Translations under genes and position numbers: made by a program
Shown here: positions 22,469 through 48,993 of the stretch, piece by piece
Layout: each line of letters opens with the position of its first letter
Numbering within the stretch: the first letter of the stretch is position 1
Assembly (NCBI RefSeq): GCF_003018235.1
Contig: NZ_CP027437.1
Reading direction: 5' to 3' (one strand)
DNA length: 64,000 bases
From: Escherichia coli
GTDB lineage: Bacteria > Pseudomonadota > Gammaproteobacteria > Enterobacterales > Enterobacteriaceae
The notes under the pieces: generated by a model
Database searches by the model: none
What the model was told of the DNA's origin: nothing
What the model saw: the letters and a program-made list of their open reading frames with translations, nothing else

Positions 22469-22999
22469 ATGGCTATCACTGGCATCTTTTTCGGCAGCGA
22501 CACCGGTAATACCGAAAATATCGCAAAAATGATTCAAAAACAGCTTGGTAAAGACGTTGCCGATGTCCATGACATTGCAAAAAGCAGCAAAGAAGATCTG
22601 GAAGCATATGACATTCTGCTGCTGGGCATCCCAACCTGGTATTACGGCGAAGCGCAGTGTGACTGGGATGACTTCTTCCCGACTCTCGAAGAGATTGATT
22701 TCAATGGCAAACTGGTTGCGCTGTTTGGCTGTGGTGACCAGGAAGATTACGCTGAATACTTCTGTGACGCATTGGGCACCATCCGCGACATCATTGAACC
22801 GCGCGGTGCAACCATTGTTGGTCACTGGCCAACTGCGGGCTACCATTTCGAAGCGTCAAAAGGTCTGGCAGATGACGACCACTTTGTCGGTCTGGCTATC
22901 GACGAAGACCGTCAGCCGGAACTGACCGCTGAACGTGTAGAAAAATGGGTTAAACAGATTTCTGAAGAGTTGCATCTCGACGAAATTCTCAATGCCTGA
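22469..22999 (+). CDS. fldA: Flavodoxin 1 (176 aa)
   Basis: ATG at 22469 gives [23 protein letters not shown]..., the long-chain flavodoxin FMN-binding motif. Confidence 0.95.
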
Positions 23000-23204
23000 T
23001 GTGATGCGGCGTAGACTCATGTCTACGCCGTATTAATAGATAATGCCAATCAAAATAATTGCTACAAATTTGTAACTTTTGCTGTTGTACCTGTACAATG
23101 TCCCGGTGTTCAAGTGGCCTTGCCGTTGTAAATGTAAGCTGTGCCACGTTTTTATTAACAATATTTGCCAGGGACTTGTGGTTTTCATTTAGGCGTGGCA
23201 ACTC

Positions 23205-23223
23205 TATAATGATACGCATTATC
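23205..23223 (+). promoter_or_regulatory. Fur box at the uof-fur promoter
   Basis: TATAATGATACGCATTATC against consensus GATAATGATAATCATTATC; overlaps the uof start codon. Confidence 0.6.
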
Positions 23224-23295
23224 TCAAGAGCAAATTCTGTCACTTCTCCTAATGAAGTGAACCGCTTAGTAACAGGACAGATTCCGCATGACTGA
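23209..23295 (+). CDS. uof: Uof, upstream leader ORF of fur (28 aa)
   Basis: ATG at 23209 gives MIRIISRANSVTSPNEVNRLVTGQIPHD; its stop overlaps the fur start region. Confidence 0.75.
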   Translation: MIRIISRANSVTSPNEVNRLVTGQIPHD

Positions 23296-23734
23296 TAACA
23301 ATACCGCCCTAAAGAAAGCTGGCCTGAAAGTAACGCTTCCTCGTTTAAAAATCCTGGAAGTTCTTCAGGAGCCGGACAACCATCACGTCAGTGCGGAAGA
23401 TTTATACAAACGTCTGATCGATATGGGTGAAGAAATTGGTCTGGCTACGGTATATCGCGTACTGAACCAGTTTGACGATGCTGGTATCGTCACCCGCCAC
23501 AATTTTGAAGGCGGTAAATCCGTATTTGAACTGACACAGCAACATCACCACGATCACCTGATCTGCCTCGACTGCGGCAAGGTTATCGAATTTAGTGATG
23601 ATTCCATCGAAGCGCGTCAGCGTGAAATTGCCGCAAAACATGGCATTCGCCTGACTAACCACAGTCTCTATCTTTACGGTCACTGTGCCGAAGGCGATTG
23701 CCGCGAAGATGAGCACGCGCACGAAGGCAAATAA
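23288..23734 (+). CDS. fur: Fur, ferric uptake regulator (148 aa)
   Basis: Translation MTDNNTALKKAGLKVTLPRLKILEVLQ... with HHHDH and C-terminal Cys pairs. Confidence 0.97.
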   Translation: MTDNNTALKKAGLKVTLPRLKILEVLQEPDNHHVSAEDLYKRLIDMGEEIGLATVYRVLNQFDDAGIVTRHNFEGGKSVFELTQQHHHDHLICLDCGKVIEFSDDSIEARQREIAAKHGIRLTNHSLYLYGHCAEGDCREDEHAHEGK

Positions 23735-23749
23735 GCCAGCCGGAACGAG

Positions 23750-23778
23750 AAAAGCCAACCTGCGGGTTGGCTTTTTTA
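23750..23778 (+). terminator. Intrinsic terminator after fur
   Basis: AGCCAACC-TGCG-GGTTGGCT hairpin followed by TTTTTT, 16 bp after the fur stop. Confidence 0.7.
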
Positions 23779-23817
23779 TACACGGGAAATAAGAAAAGCG
23801 AGAGTTACAGCTCTCAC

Positions 23818-36533: not shown

Positions 36534-36610
36534 GGCTACGTAGCTCAGTTGGTTAGAGCACATCACTCATAATGATGGGGTCACAGGTTCGAATCCCGTC
36601 GTAGCCACCA
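36534..36610 (+). tRNA. metT: tRNA-Met (elongator, anticodon CAU)
   Basis: 77-nt GGCTACGTAGCTCAGTTGGTTAGAGCACATCACTCATAATGATGGGGTCACAGGTTCGAATCCCGTCGTAGCCACCA with encoded CCA. Confidence 0.95.
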
Positions 36611-36620
36611 TCTTTTTTTT

Positions 36621-36705
36621 GCGGGAGTGGCGAAATTGGTAGACGCACCAGATTTAGGTTCTGGCGCCGCAAGGTGTGCGAGTTCAAGTCTCGCCTCCCG
36701 CACCA
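36621..36705 (+). tRNA. leuW: tRNA-Leu (anticodon UAG), class II with long variable arm
   Basis: 85-nt GCGGGAGTGGCGAAATTGGTAGACGCACCAGATTTAGGTTCTGG...CGCACCA. Confidence 0.95.
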
Positions 36706-36728
36706 TTCACCAGAAAGCGTTGTACGGA

Positions 36729-36803
36729 TGGGGTATCGCCAAGCGGTAAGGCACCGGTTTTTGATACCGGCATTCCCTGGTTCGAATCCAGGTACCCCAG
36801 CCA
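36729..36803 (+). tRNA. glnU: tRNA-Gln (anticodon UUG)
   Basis: 75-nt TGGGGTATCGCCAAGCGGTAAGGCACCGGTTTTTGATACCGG...CCAGCCA. Confidence 0.95.
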
Positions 36804-36837
36804 TCTTCTTCGAGTAAGCGGTTCACCGCCCGGTTAT

Positions 36838-36912
36838 TGGGGTATCGCCAAGCGGTAAGGCACCGGTTTTTGATACCGGCATTCCCTGGTTCGAATCCAG
36901 GTACCCCAGCCA
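36838..36912 (+). tRNA. glnW: tRNA-Gln (anticodon UUG), second copy
   Basis: Identical to the glnU sequence. Confidence 0.95.
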
Positions 36913-36927
36913 TCGAAGAAACAATCT

Positions 36928-37004
36928 GGCTACGTAGCTCAGTTGGTTAGAGCACATCACTCATAATGATGGGGTCACAGGTTCGAATCCCGTCGTAGCC
37001 ACCA
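36928..37004 (+). tRNA. metU: tRNA-Met (elongator, anticodon CAU), second copy
   Basis: Identical to the metT sequence. Confidence 0.95.
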
Positions 37005-37052
37005 AATTCTGAATGTGTCGAATATGTTCGGCAAATTCAAAAACCAATTTGT

Positions 37053-37127
37053 TGGGGTATCGCCAAGCGGTAAGGCACCGGATTCTGATTCCGGCATTCC
37101 GAGGTTCGAATCCTCGTACCCCAGCCA
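37053..37127 (+). tRNA. glnV: tRNA-Gln (anticodon CUG)
   Basis: 75-nt TGGGGTATCGCCAAGCGGTAAGGCACCGGATTCTGATTCCGG...CCAGCCA. Confidence 0.95.
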
Positions 37128-37164
37128 ATTTATTCAAGACGCTTACCTTGTAAGTGCACCCAGT

Positions 37165-37239
37165 TGGGGTATCGCCAAGCGGTAAGGCACCGGATTCTGA
37201 TTCCGGCATTCCGAGGTTCGAATCCTCGTACCCCAGCCA
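37165..37239 (+). tRNA. glnX: tRNA-Gln (anticodon CUG), second copy
   Basis: Identical to the glnV sequence. Confidence 0.95.
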
Positions 37240-38713: not shown

Positions 38714-40138
38714 ATGACCAAAAAACTCCATATTAAAACCTGGGGCTGTCAGATGAACGAGTACGATTCATCGAAGATGGCCGATCTGCTGGATGCCACC
38801 CACGGCTATCAACTGACCGACGTGGCGGAAGAAGCGGATGTGCTGCTGCTGAACACCTGCTCAATCCGCGAGAAGGCTCAGGAAAAAGTCTTCCATCAGT
38901 TGGGTCGCTGGAAACTGTTAAAAGAGAAGAATCCAGACCTGATTATCGGCGTCGGCGGCTGCGTGGCATCGCAAGAAGGTGAGCACATTCGCCAGCGCGC
39001 CCACTATGTCGATATTATTTTTGGGCCGCAAACGCTGCACCGTCTGCCGGAGATGATCAACTCCGTGCGCGGCGACCGCAGCCCGGTTGTAGATATCAGC
39101 TTCCCGGAAATCGAGAAGTTTGACCGTCTGCCGGAACCGCGTGCCGAAGGGCCGACCGCGTTTGTCTCCATCATGGAAGGCTGCAATAAATATTGTACCT
39201 ACTGCGTAGTGCCTTACACCCGTGGTGAAGAGGTAAGCCGTCCGTCCGACGATATTCTGTTTGAGATCGCCCAGCTTGCGGCTCAGGGCGTGCGTGAAGT
39301 CAACCTGCTCGGTCAGAACGTGAACGCCTGGCGTGGTGAAAACTACGACGGCACCACCGGATCGTTTGCCGATCTGCTGCGTCTGGTTGCTGCGATCGAC
39401 GGGATCGATCGTATTCGCTTTACCACCAGCCATCCGATCGAATTCACCGACGATATCATCGAAGTGTACCGCGACACGCCGGAGCTGGTGAGCTTCCTGC
39501 ATCTGCCGGTGCAGAGCGGTTCCGATCGCATTCTGAACCTGATGGGACGTACCCATACAGCGCTGGAGTACAAAGCGATCATCCGTAAGCTGCGTGCGGC
39601 GCGTCCGGATATTCAGATCAGTTCTGACTTCATCGTTGGCTTCCCTGGCGAAACCACCGAAGACTTCGAGAAAACGATGAAGCTGATTGCCGACGTCAAT
39701 TTCGACATGAGCTACAGCTTTATCTTCTCCGCTCGTCCAGGTACACCAGCCGCCGACATGGTTGATGATGTTCCGGAAGAAGAGAAGAAGCAGCGTCTGT
39801 ATATTCTGCAAGAACGCATTAATCAGCAAGCGATGGCATGGAGCCGCCGAATGCTCGGCACCACCCAGCGTATTCTGGTAGAAGGTACATCGCGTAAGAG
39901 CATCATGGAGCTTTCCGGTCGCACTGAAAATAACCGCGTGGTTAACTTCGAAGGTACACCGGATATGATCGGTAAATTCGTCGATGTAGAAATTACCGAC
40001 GTCTACCCGAACTCTCTGCGCGGTAAAGTGGTGCGAACTGAAGATGAAATGAGTCTGCGCGTGGCAGAAACACCGGAATCGGTGATTGCCCGTACCCGCA
40101 AAGAAAACGACCTTGGCGTGGGTTATTATCAGCCGTAA
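38714..40138 (+). CDS. miaB: MiaB, tRNA methylthiotransferase (474 aa)
   Basis: Radical-SAM CxxxCxxC (CNKYCTYC) and C-terminal TRAM domain; divergent from ubiF. Confidence 0.97.
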
Positions 40139-44326: not shown

Positions 44327-44722
44327 TCCCTTCTTATCGTGCCGGAATACATCCCGTATTTCGGCACGCTCACCGGATGCGGCATCAGTGCGTTATCCGG
44401 ATTACAAAATTCCCCTATCCAACTTTGGCACATCTATTGCTTTGTTATACAAGGCAAAGCTTGAACCAGCATCAGTACAACCCGGTTGCACCACAGCAAT
44501 CCACGGGTAGCACCAAAAGAGTGCATTTTAAGAATTTTGCTTCGGAATGGTGCGGCGCATCTCGCAAAAACAAACAATAAAACAGCAATATCTTTACATT
44601 TAGCCAAACTAAATGTTACCTAACAAGCACAACACTGCACAATAAAGTTGCAGATGATAACAACACAAACACTCACAACGGGTATCCATGCGTTCTTAAC
44701 GCAGAAGATAAAGGAGTTGGAT

Positions 44723-45631
44723 ATGCAATTACGTAAACCTGCCACAGCAATCCTGGCCTTGGCGCTTTCCGCAGGACTGGCACAGGCAGATGACGCCGCC
44801 CCGGCAGCGGGCAGTACGCTGGACAAAATCGCCAAAAACGGTGTGATTGTCGTCGGTCACCGTGAATCTTCAGTACCTTTCTCTTATTACGACAATCAGC
44901 AAAAAGTGGTGGGTTACTCGCAGGATTACTCCAACGCCATTGTTGAAGCAGTGAAAAAGAAACTCAACAAACCGGACTTGCAGGTAAAACTGATTCCGAT
45001 CACCTCACAAAACCGTATTCCACTGCTGCAAAACGGCACTTTCGATTTTGAATGTGGTTCTACCACCAACAACGTCGAACGCCAAAAACAGGCGGCTTTC
45101 TCTGACACTATTTTCGTGGTCGGTACGCGCCTTCTGACCAAAAAGGGCGGCGATATCAAAGATTTTGCCGACCTGAAAGGCAAAGCCGTAGTCGTCACTT
45201 CCGGCACTACCTCTGAAGTTTTGCTCAACAAACTGAATGAAGAGCAAAAAATGAATATGCGAATTATCAGCGCCAAAGATCACGGTGACTCTTTCCGTAC
45301 CCTGGAAAGCGGTCGTGCCGTTGCCTTTATGATGGATGATGCTCTGCTGGCTGGTGAACGTGCGAAAGCGAAGAAACCAGACAACTGGGAAATCGTCGGC
45401 AAGCCGCAGTCTCAGGAAGCCTACGGTTGCATGTTGCGTAAAGACGATCCGCAGTTCAAAAAGCTGATGGATGACACCATCGCGCAGGTGCAGACCTCCG
45501 GTGAAGCGGAAAAATGGTTTGATAAATGGTTCAAAAATCCAATTCCGCCGAAAAACCTGAACATGAATTTCGAACTGTCAGACGAAATGAAAGCACTGTT
45601 CAAAGAACCGAATGACAAGGCACTGAACTAA
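44723..45631 (+). CDS. gltI: GltI, glutamate/aspartate periplasmic binding protein (302 aa)
   Basis: ATG at 44723 after AAGGAG; signal peptide MQLRKPATAILALALSAGLAQA. Confidence 0.95.
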   Translation: MQLRKPATAILALALSAGLAQADDAAPAAGSTLDKIAKNGVIVVGHRESSVPFSYYDNQQKVVGYSQDYSNAIVEAVKKKLNKPDLQVKLIPITSQNRIPLLQNGTFDFECGSTTNNVERQKQAAFSDTIFVVGTRLLTKKGGDIKDFADLKGKAVVVTSGTTSEVLLNKLNEEQKMNMRIISAKDHGDSFRTLESGRAVAFMMDDALLAGERAKAKKPDNWEIVGKPQSQEAYGCMLRKDDPQFKKLMDDTIAQVQTSGEAEKWFDKWFKNPIPPKNLNMNFELSDEMKALFKEPNDKALN

Positions 45632-45788
45632 TTACAAGAACCAGGGGCGGAAATTCCAGCCCTCTCGATTGTTACGTAGCACGGACAGACTATACGCCTG
45701 ATGGTCGTTCCCCATCGGGCCTGAAAACCGCAATACGCTGGGTAACAATCTTCGAGGGTAGCAGTTAACGCTGCTACCCTCTTTTTTC
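45632..45788 (+). ncRNA. sroC: SroC sRNA (processed gltI-gltJ spacer, GcvB sponge)
   Basis: Whole gltI-gltJ intergenic spacer, ending in GAGGGTAGCAG-TTAACG-CTGCTACCCTC hairpin plus TTTTTT (45754-45788). Assigned from recalled K-12 location; 5' end approximate. Confidence 0.55.
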
Positions 45789-45800
45789 TGGAGTAGATTT

Positions 45801-47940: not shown

Positions 47941-48057
47941 TCACTCTGGCGCGCATACCCAAGTGCGCGCCATCTCACGCTTTATCGTTTCGCTCCTCGT
48001 ATCTGTTACATCCTGGCGTTACCCTTGTCGCAAAGAAGCACACAACAAGGAGCAACA

Positions 48058-48993
48058 ATGGCACTGCCAATTCTGTTAGATTGCGACCCAGGTCATGATG
48101 ACGCTATCGCAATAGTTCTCGCCCTCGCCTCACCAGAGCTTGATGTCAAAGCAATTACGTCTTCCGCCGGAAACCAGACACCAGAAAAAACCTTACGCAA
48201 TGTTCTGCGTATGCTGACCTTGCTTAATCGCACCGATATTCCGGTGGCAGGCGGCGCGGTAAAACCGTTAATGCGTGAGTTGATTATCGCGGACAATGTG
48301 CACGGTGAAAGCGGTCTCGACGGCCCGGCATTACCGGAACCGACGTTCGCACCGCAAAACTGTACGGCGGTGGAGCTGATGGCGAAAACGCTGCGTGAAA
48401 GTGAGGAACCTGTCACGATTGTGTCTACCGGACCGCAAACTAACGTTGCCTTGCTGCTCAATAGCCATCCGGAACTGCATAGCAAAATCGCCCGTATCGT
48501 GATTATGGGCGGCGCAATGGGGCTTGGTAACTGGACGCCAGCCGCCGAGTTTAATATTTATGTTGACCCGGAAGCGGCAGAAATTGTTTTCCAGTCAGGG
48601 ATCCCGGTGGTGATGGCCGGTCTGGATGTTACTCATAAAGCGCAAATCCACGTTGAAGACACCGAGCGTTTCCGCGCGATTGGCAACCCTGTTTCAACCA
48701 TTGTTGCCGAACTGCTGGATTTCTTCCTCGAATATCATAAAGACGAAAAATGGGGTTTTGTCGGCGCACCGCTGCATGACCCATGCACCATCGCCTGGCT
48801 GTTGAAACCGGAGTTGTTTACCACTGTTGAGCGCTGGGTTGGCGTGGAAACACAAGGGAAATATACCCAGGGTATGACGGTTGTTGATTATTATTATCTG
48901 ACTGGCAATAAACCGAATGCCACTGTAATGGTCGATGTTGATCGTCAGGGCTTTGTTGATTTACTGGCTGATCGTCTGAAATTTTACGCTTAA
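48058..48993 (+). CDS. rihA: RihA, pyrimidine-specific ribonucleoside hydrolase (311 aa)
   Basis: ATG at 48058 gives [22 protein letters not shown] (nucleoside hydrolase DxDxxxDD motif). Confidence 0.95.

Follow-up and report, generated by a model that had tools for sequence, protein, structure and literature searches.

The window analysed here, a stretch of 64,000 nucleotides of Escherichia coli DNA, very probably contains the native fur control region of this species, in which a Fur operator, the leader ORF uof and a RyhB site provide two layers of control that act on different molecules. The operator and the promoter P_fur belong to a short mRNA without uof, and promoters further upstream give the mRNAs with uof. 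The system itself is already known, and every RefSeq E. coli genome carries its annotation; the only items that are mildly new are a covarying RNA hairpin inside uof and an evolutionary ranking, in which the promoter comes before the hairpin, the hairpin before the strong Fur box and the Fur box before the uof ORF. Fur is the master iron regulator of enterics, and its dosage is controlled by a classic mixed feedback loop that joins a transcription factor to an sRNA and a leader ORF.

The stretch 22950–23800 was matched, with at least 95% identity, in 5424 of the 5426 complete E. coli genomes, where the annotation reads fldA, uof ("fur leader peptide") and fur. The genes are arranged as follows.

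22469..22999, plus strand: coding sequence of fldA (flavodoxin 1), from the ORF and the K-12 annotation; counted from the ATG at 22469, its length is the 531 nt of K-12
23209..23295, plus strand: uof, the 28-codon fur leader ORF MIRIISRANSVTSPNEVNRLVTGQIPHD, from the ORF, NCBIfam NF011344 and the RefSeq annotation
23288..23734, plus strand: coding sequence of fur, 148 aa, from the ORF, NCBIfam NF006999 and the annotation
23288..23295, plus strand: the uof/fur overlap ATGACTGA, 8 nt, which joins the fur start to the uof stop

The uof peptide scored 81.3 bits against the NCBIfam equivalog NF011344 (cutoff 71), with residues 1–28 of 28 aligned, and Fur scored 309 bits against the equivalog NF006999 (cutoff 146). 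The locus is the same as the uof-fur locus of K-12 (b4637–b0683; EcoCyc/RegulonDB; Vecerek et al. 2007), in which b4637 is annotated as "RyhB-regulated fur leader peptide" and b0683 is fur. Between 22990 and 23330, the window and K-12 differ at 2 of the 341 bases, and they have in common the 19-bp Fur box, the 28-codon ORF, the ATGACTGA overlap, the UCA at codon 6 and the GAGCAA seed for RyhB. The first difference (position 23202, C here and T in K-12) lies in the promoter spacer, within the Fur footprint and outside the 19-mer. The second (position 23248, C here and T in K-12) falls within the hairpin loop and makes uof codon 14 Pro here, against Ser in K-12; in another E. coli (L004), the same codon is Phe.

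According to the initial annotation, the uof stop overlaps the fur start. The two ORFs indeed share the 8 nt of ATGACTGA, but the triplets themselves, the uof TGA at 23293–23295 and the fur ATG at 23288–23290, do not touch. The same arrangement, with the uof ATG at -79 and the TGA at +6..+8 relative to fur, was found in 37 of 81 leaders, that is, in the window and the 80 Enterobacterales fur loci that formed the comparison set.

The following elements define the operator and the promoter on which it lies.

23182..23187, plus strand: P_fur -35 hexamer TTTTCA, from a consensus scan
23205..23210, plus strand: P_fur -10 hexamer TATAAT, from a consensus scan; it opens the Fur box on the left and ends with the first two bases of the uof ATG
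23205..23223, plus strand: Fur operator (Fur box) TATAATGATACGCATTATC, 19 bp, from the consensus, the position weight matrix (PWM) and the footprint; -13..+6 of P_fur
23197..23226, plus strand: DNase I footprint of Fur on the fur promoter, published and converted; -91..-62 from the fur ATG
23218, plus strand: transcription start (A) of the fur-only mRNA, SMRT-Cappable-seq TSS 710716; uof +10, 70 nt 5' of the fur ATG

The 19-bp site had been described as covering the uof ATG (23209–23211), and every coordinate of this description was verified. The 19-mer agrees with the consensus GATAATGATAATCATTATC in 16 of its 19 positions and is the sole site with three mismatches or fewer on both strands of the 64 kb, where 0.02 would be expected. 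Scoring with a PWM had been suggested as a check of the site. Such a matrix was built without fur, from 11 other experimentally validated E. coli Fur regions (fepA-fes, fepD-entS, fepB, entC, tonB, cir, sodA, fecA, fecI, fhuF, and ryhB), and gave the 19-mer 17.6 bits, rank 1 of the 127,964 19-mers in the window; the runner-up under this matrix lies at 48880. This high score, which falls inside the leave-one-out range of the 11 known sites (11.6–22.4 bits), marks the site as a genuine Fur operator. Footprint coordinates were transferred to the window by means of the fur coordinates that we take NC_000913.2 to have, which agree with the K-12 annotation plus an offset of 777. Once converted, the fur promoter footprint listed in Table 3 of Chen et al. 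(2007) at NC_000913.2 709931–709960, and credited there to de Lorenzo 1988, brackets the whole 19-mer. The Fur box is therefore an operator beyond chance, with Fur binding itself taken from the published footprint.

As in the classical Fur-repressed promoters (iucA, fepA-fes, entC, fhuF, and ryhB), a 19-bp GATAAT-array operator lies over the core promoter, and the PWM score of the fur site is within their range. At those promoters holo-Fur occludes RNA polymerase, as is proposed for fur. Unlike them, the fur operator shows one strong register by the PWM, and two walkers are assigned to the fur promoter by Chen et al. (2007), the best with an Ri of 12.3 bits. In the model of that paper, this value is at the low end of the range of 11.5–23.3 bits and places the fur operator among the weakest footprinted sites, in agreement with the mild autoregulation reported for fur. 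Also unlike the classical targets, the gene regulated at this operator is that of the repressor itself.

P_fur, with TTTTCA and TATAAT separated by 17 bp, matches the sigma-70 consensus at 10 of 12 positions, and its -10 hexamer is perfect. In the SMRT-Cappable-seq data of Yan et al. (2018, Supplementary Data 2), a fur-only operon (b0683) has its TSS at NC_000913.3 710716, on the reverse strand, and the operons that contain uof, b0684-b4637-b0683 and b0685-b0684-b4637-b0683, start at 711521 (the fldA promoter) and 711951 (the ybfE promoter). After conversion (window position = 733934 - K-12 position in NC_000913.3), the fur-only TSS falls at 23218, 9 nt 3' of the uof ATG, so that the Fur box occupies -13..+6. 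In agreement with this, Pfur is reported in one paper to be "located within the uof ORF", Puof being a distinct promoter further upstream, and a second paper places +1fura/+1furb within uof. The mRNA from P_fur thus starts past the uof ATG and cannot encode uof. Since this TSS is downstream of the uof ATG, Fur autorepression acts on an mRNA without uof; the autorepression proposed in the initial annotation stands as far as the operator is real and lies on the promoter core, but it applies to the mRNA that starts at 23218 and does not reach uof. Likewise, because the P_fur mRNA lacks the uof start, only RNAs begun further 5', at the fldA and ybfE promoters, can carry uof and couple it to fur. 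That the Fur box and the uof ATG coincide is explained by the ATG contained in TATAATG and in the Fur-box consensus GATAATGAT (GATA-ATG-AT), and the overlap is no functional link between Fur and uof.

One further promoter-like element was found between fldA and uof.

23070..23099, plus strand: upstream promoter-like TTGTAA-18-TACAAT, candidate Puof, from a consensus scan (9/12)

Its predicted start, at about 23106, would place the uof AUG on the mRNA. The literature reports a uof promoter upstream of the ORF and OxyR-dependent uof-fur transcription, and the element at 23070–23099 is a candidate for this Puof; the SMRT-Cappable-seq table holds no TSS at this position.

Among the comparison loci, the -35 and -10 hexamers are invariant in 37 of the 37 leaders with an intact uof frame (the window and 36 of the 80 loci) and are common beyond them. 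The sequence TATAATGA, which spans the P_fur -10, is kept in about 70 of the 80 Enterobacterales loci, and the core TATAATGAnACGCAT was also found in about 70 of 80. Scored with the Fur PWM, the homologous site reaches 17.6 bits in Escherichia, most Citrobacter and Salmonella, 14.5 bits in Enterobacter, 10 bits or less in more distant genera and 3.4 bits in Pantoea. By the comparison of these loci, conservation of the promoter and of the leader hairpin described below goes deeper than that of the strong Fur box or of the uof ORF.

One element dominates the folds predicted for the leader, and it lies inside uof.

23240..23260, plus strand: conserved RNA hairpin UCACUUC-UCCUAAU-GAAGUGA, from predicted folds and covariation; uof codons 11–18

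In other genera, a hairpin stands at the same distance from the fur ATG with different stems, for example ACUUCC/GGAAGU, UUGCUCC/GGAGCGA, CGCUCA/UGAGCG, and CUCCC/GGGGG. Covariation was evaluated in a covariance-model-guided alignment of 46 loci, in which double-sided changes were found in 7 of the 9 hairpin pairs (40 cells over the 46 loci). The covariation of the hairpin was 0.265, against 0.160 +/- 0.014 in shuffles (0 of 500 reached the observed value) and at most 0.098 in slid controls; these values carry the caveat of an alignment fitted to the structure. With a MAFFT alignment as input, RNAalifold did not recover the hairpin, as indels put its 5' arm out of register. The stem never varies within the close group of leaders with the ATG at -79, so that no covariation signal comes from there. 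The variable middle of the uof peptide corresponds to the hairpin loop, which also holds the Ser/Pro/Phe polymorphism of codon 14. In Salmonella arizonae the loop is one base shorter, a frameshift that truncates its ORF. No Rfam family for the fur leader was found, the only two hits being at chance level (E = 2.3), and no description of the hairpin at 23240–23260 was found in the literature searched; the primary uof paper may contain one. A pseudouridine site in fur mRNA is mentioned, without its position, in one paper and cannot be related to the hairpin.

Shine-Dalgarno pairing is weak at the starts of both ORFs. The predicted SD:anti-SD energies are -3.6 kcal/mol for uof and -4.0 kcal/mol for fur, compared with -6.5 kcal/mol for fldA, and the value of uof is equalled by 29% of all ATGs.

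23274..23277, plus strand: weak fur Shine-Dalgarno AGGA, -4.0 kcal/mol, 10 nt 5' of the ATG (spacing 9–10 nt)

The GGA of this element is predicted to pair with the UCC at 23283–23285, in a helix that is invariant in 27 sequences and shows no covariation. The fur SD and AUG are enclosed only by weak local helices (GGA/UCC and UUAGU/ACUGA), and the global fold of the leader has z-scores of +0.35 and -0.75. According to reviews of the work of Vecerek et al. (2007), uof is translated and fur translation is coupled to that of uof. The uof/fur geometry would be compatible with such translational coupling, the coupling itself being taken from the literature.

The targeting of the uof 5' region by RyhB had also been put forward, and a search for complementarity had been suggested. 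The RyhB sequence was taken from K-12, and 26-nt target windows were scanned against the RyhB core; full-length RNAduplex gave hybrids with giant loops.

23228..23242, plus strand: predicted RyhB pairing site, GAGCAA (23228–23233) with RyhB U42–C47 and UGUC (23238–23241) with RyhB G38–A41

Complementarity is present. Of the two outcomes that were to count against the initial annotation, a poor PWM score for the Fur box or no RyhB complementarity, neither occurred, and all the elements it named are real and correspond to the annotated, published ones. The best hybrid inside uof, at -12.1 kcal/mol, is formed by the 6-bp seed GAGCAA:UUGCUC plus UGUC:GACA, and the seed includes G44/C45 of RyhB, whose inversion is reported to abolish the repression of uof and fur. 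Its energy, however, is ordinary against the background, since -12.1 kcal/mol is reached by 22% of all 26-nt windows and by 83% of the 90-nt segments of the 64 kb. An optional third helix, between 23210–23215 and RyhB 60–65, would bring the energy to -14.9 kcal/mol (z = -3.4 against shuffles of the same 48 nt). The best hybrid within 23060–23340 lies 5' of uof, at 23079–23103, also with -14.9 kcal/mol, an energy of background size. Outside Escherichia, Salmonella and some Citrobacter, the predicted complementarity is that of the background, and an independent benchmark called the published RyhB-uof model "not predictable". The link of RyhB to uof-fur rests on published experiments, not on prediction.

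The predicted site is thus inside uof, as had been proposed, but at +20..+34 of the ORF and not mainly at its 5' end or start codon. On the short P_fur mRNA the same site is at +11..+25, where it is predicted to be single-stranded. This position near the 5' end of the short mRNA fits the effect described in one paper, in which RyhB lowered the short fur mRNA and not the long uof-fur mRNA. The site would use the same single-stranded RyhB core (nt 37–50, including G44/C45) as sodB and sdhCDAB. It differs from these in that it lies about 50 nt from the fur start, inside a leader ORF, whereas sodB and sdhCDAB are paired on their own RBS; in addition, its predicted energy is weak, and prediction tools do not recover the published model.

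Placed on the anatomy observed here, the Fur footprint, the TSS, the RyhB dependence and the coupling, all from the literature, lead us to propose the following mechanism. On the DNA, Fe2+-Fur bound at 23205–23223 would exclude RNA polymerase from P_fur, which would result in autorepression of the short mRNA without uof. On the RNA, longer transcripts from the fldA and ybfE promoters, and from the reportedly OxyR-dependent promoter near 23070–23099, would carry the uof AUG. Ribosomes translating the 28 codons of uof would traverse the hairpin at 23240–23260 and then the weakly structured fur initiation region with its weak SD, and their termination at the TGA (23293–23295), 5 nt past the fur AUG, would favour fur initiation, that is, translational coupling, to which the melting of the hairpin by these ribosomes may contribute. 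RyhB, made when Fur is inactive, would pair with 23228–23242, just 5' of the hairpin, and so limit Fur synthesis in iron starvation.

The textbook picture of a Fur synthesis coupled to uof, with RyhB blocking uof, may nevertheless cover only a minority of the fur mRNA. It is conceivable, and we put it forward tentatively, that the main post-transcriptional control is a short-leader module independent of uof, consisting of a 5' single-stranded RyhB/Hfq site and the conserved hairpin, with uof as an accessory overlay, restricted to some lineages and derived from the ATG in the -10/Fur box. We consider this reading because P_fur and the hairpin, and not the ORF, are the most conserved elements, and because the only fur-proximal capped 5' end is at uof +10. 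The RyhB seed lies 11 nt from that 5' end, and RyhB is reported to destabilise the short mRNA and not the long one.

Another reading takes uof for an evolutionary by-product and not a selected gene, with direct initiation on the short mRNA as the main source of Fur. We regard this as unlikely, since reviews relay published genetic and biochemical evidence for the translation of uof and for the coupling, and since the distribution of the ORF also speaks for selection in part. The origin that such a reading would give to the ORF is simple: an ATG supplied by the -10/Fur box, ATGACTGA with stops in both other frames, and stop-free RNA elements in between. When the leaders were shuffled, the uof frame stayed open in 26% of cases, and the uof ORF of the window and its overlap with fur, taken alone, are not beyond chance. 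Neither is the overlap independent evidence, because the uof TGA is supplied by fur codons 2–3 (ACT GAY). It is conserved in 77 of the 80 Enterobacterales, including taxa without uof, and the conservation of the TGA in ATGACTGA was rejected as support for uof, as it is equally high where uof is absent.

Across the comparison set, on the other hand, 44 of 66 unique leaders (67%) have an ATG frame without a stop as far as fur, compared with the 26% of the shuffles, and the open frames span eight spacing classes and two frames. The sole other frame able to open does so in 41% of the leaders, a value that favours the by-product origin. The excess of open ATG frames suggests selection for the ORF, though it is confounded by phylogeny. 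A uof of 28–30 codons ending ATGAC-TGA is present in Escherichia, most Citrobacter, Enterobacter, Kosakonia, Kluyvera, Phytobacter, Leclercia, Pluralibacter, and others, and the indels among these intact leaders are multiples of three (ATG at -79, -82, and -85), which argues against a by-product. So do Mangrovibacter, Cedecea and one Buttiauxella, in which the ORF has switched to another frame and yet reaches the fur start, ending A-TGA on it. In two Buttiauxella, Dryocola and one Enterobacter sp., the ORF is in frame with fur and unstopped. It stops well 5' of fur after 16 codons in Salmonella arizonae and three others, after 14 in Klebsiella and Raoultella, after 13 in Atlantibacter and after 4 (MRRK) in Pantoea.

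The promoter core is retained in Salmonella arizonae, Klebsiella, Raoultella, Atlantibacter and Pantoea despite the truncated ORF, and the loss of the ORF in several genera that keep both promoter and hairpin is what a by-product would lead one to expect. The same holds for the weak SD of uof, for the only fur-proximal TSS in the capped-RNA data, which bypasses the uof AUG, and for the reported effect of RyhB on the short mRNA and not on the long. There is, moreover, almost no coding periodicity in uof: the entropy by codon position is 0.38/0.30/0.41, against 0.07/0.03/0.35 in the first fur codons, and conservation of the peptide is concentrated in its overlaps with the Fur box and the fur RBS. 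This pattern would fit a leader whose translation matters and whose sequence does not, and it would fit a by-product as well. Against the two-layer arrangement itself speak the near absence of periodicity, the weak uof SD and the truncated ORFs, and likewise the background-level RyhB energy with its narrow conservation and the missing capped 5' end for Puof.

The arrangement implied by the initial annotation, in which Fur represses a uof-fur promoter, both controls sit on the same transcript and all fur translation is coupled to uof, is quite improbable. It would account for the physical overlap of the Fur box and the uof ATG and for reviews that speak of metallo-Fur inhibiting "uof-fur transcription", and a Fur dimer on 23197–23226 could in principle act as a roadblock to read-through from fldA. 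However, the promoter with its -10 in the box starts at 23218, 3' of the uof ATG, and Pfur is placed within uof by the two papers cited above. The ATG is, besides, intrinsic to TATAATG and to the Fur box, and it is kept with the promoter even where there is no uof ORF, as in Pantoea (MRRK).

A role of uof in transcription attenuation, as a leader peptide of the trpL/hisL type with the hairpin at 23240–23260 as terminator or antiterminator, can be dismissed almost entirely: EcoCyc does count uof among its "leader peptides" and a conserved hairpin does lie inside the ORF, but no terminator-like site was found in 23200–23300, the hairpin is followed by AACCGCUUAG and not by a U-run, no mutually exclusive alternative hairpins are predicted, the fold z-scores are those given above, and uof has no runs of a regulatory amino-acid codon. 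The attenuator model was rejected on the first two of these points, the missing terminator and the missing U-tail. The leader peptides trpL, hisL and pheL are, like uof, short ORFs directly 5' of the regulated gene; they control transcription termination, whereas uof is proposed to act by coupling through the overlapping stop and start, without a terminator/antiterminator pair.

For the two-layer arrangement that we favour, the conservation ranking could guide a re-examination of how far Fur synthesis depends on uof. One codon of the leader has been given a role of its own in the literature.

23224..23226, plus strand: uof codon 6, UCA (Ser), from the sequence; the decoding codon of the literature

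This UCA is described as the MiaB/ms2i6A-dependent codon of "iron-responsive decoding". Among 27 leaders with intact uof, codon 6 is TCA in 14 and CCA or CCG in 13.

The reading frame that follows the promoter of fur (P_fur) was found to differ among the 80 Enterobacterales fur loci compared. For example, in Mangrovibacter (L021, L026, and L029), Cedecea (L053 and L055), Buttiauxella (L064), and one further locus, L048, the ORF opened by the TATA-ATG of the promoter is in another reading frame from that of uof, the 28-codon leader ORF of fur in E. coli, and encodes an unrelated peptide. These other-frame ORFs begin ∼70–80 nt upstream of fur (which starts at position 1501 of each locus), still reach the fur start, and end in a 4-nt ATGA overlap. 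At four other loci (L056, L057, L059, and L062), the ORF from the TATA-ATG is in the fur frame and has no stop, and its translation would yield Fur with an N-terminal extension.

The leader ORF also contains a structural element, located as follows:

23240–23260, (+) strand: conserved hairpin inside uof, codons 11–18

Its stem shows compensatory changes from genus to genus. Rfam holds no family for this hairpin, and no description of it was found in the literature searched. The hairpin is retained in L027 (Salmonella enterica subsp. arizonae, positions about 1419–1503 of the locus), together with a Fur box that is the same as that of E. coli (17.6 bits). Because the hairpin loop in L027 is one base shorter, the frame is shifted, and the leader ORF, only 16 codons long, ends 27 nt short of the fur ATG; an E. 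coli-type uof is thus absent from this Salmonella.

Two further features were recorded between fldA and uof:

23008–23029: 9-bp GC-rich hairpin GGCGTAGAC-TCAT-GTCTACGCC, directly after the fldA stop
23098–23100, (+) strand: second in-frame ATG of the uof frame, embedded in the upstream -10-like TACAATG

The first of these is without a U-run and was not called by the terminator scan. Published full-length RNA data describe both fldA-only and fldA-uof-fur transcripts with one common start, and the hairpin is therefore possibly a leaky terminator, which may set the amount of uof-containing mRNA. As for the second, the uof frame is open upstream as far as 23059 (78 codons, counted from a TTG); in Escherichia albertii, the ATG at 23098–23100 is not conserved and the frame is open for 37 codons only.

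The upstream promoter-like site (TTGTAA-18-TACAAT, 23070–23099) adjoins, at its -35, the tetranucleotides ATAG-n7-CAAT-n7-ATTG-n7-TTTG (23036–23072). Their spacing resembles that of an OxyR site. In the literature, fur is under OxyR control. The top hybrid of the RyhB core in the fldA-fur intergenic region (23079–23103, −14.9 kcal/mol) lies not in uof, but upstream of it, over the promoter-like site, and is probably due to chance, since such energies are common in the window.

Only two positions of the fldA-fur intergenic region differ from K-12, both of them C instead of T. The first, 23248, makes uof codon 14 Pro rather than Ser (the codon is Phe in L004, another E. coli), and the second, 23202, is in the P_fur spacer, within the Fur footprint. 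Farther away, the lnt-gltI intergenic region (44,327–44,722) falls short of its K-12 counterpart by 1199 bp; this strain therefore lacks the IS5D insertion of MG1655, which accounts for 1195 bp and a 4-bp duplication. Another ∼267 bp of difference from K-12 falls within the interval from fur to the tRNA cluster. This seven-tRNA cluster, metT-leuW-glnUW-metU-glnVX (36,534–37,236), and the sRNA SroC (45,627–45,789) were identified by Rfam; both are expected in this chromosomal region of E. coli. Some 15 kb from uof is a 474-codon ORF (38,714–40,138) which, by its colinearity with K-12 miaB and equal length, is presumably miaB; the tRNA methylthiolase MiaB has been linked in the literature to the decoding of uof codon 6 (UCA).

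The runner-up match of the window to the Fur weight matrix is a predicted site, GTTGTTGATTATTATTATC (48,880–48,898, 16.4 bits), located within a 322-codon ORF (48,025–48,993) that is colinear with K-12 rihA.
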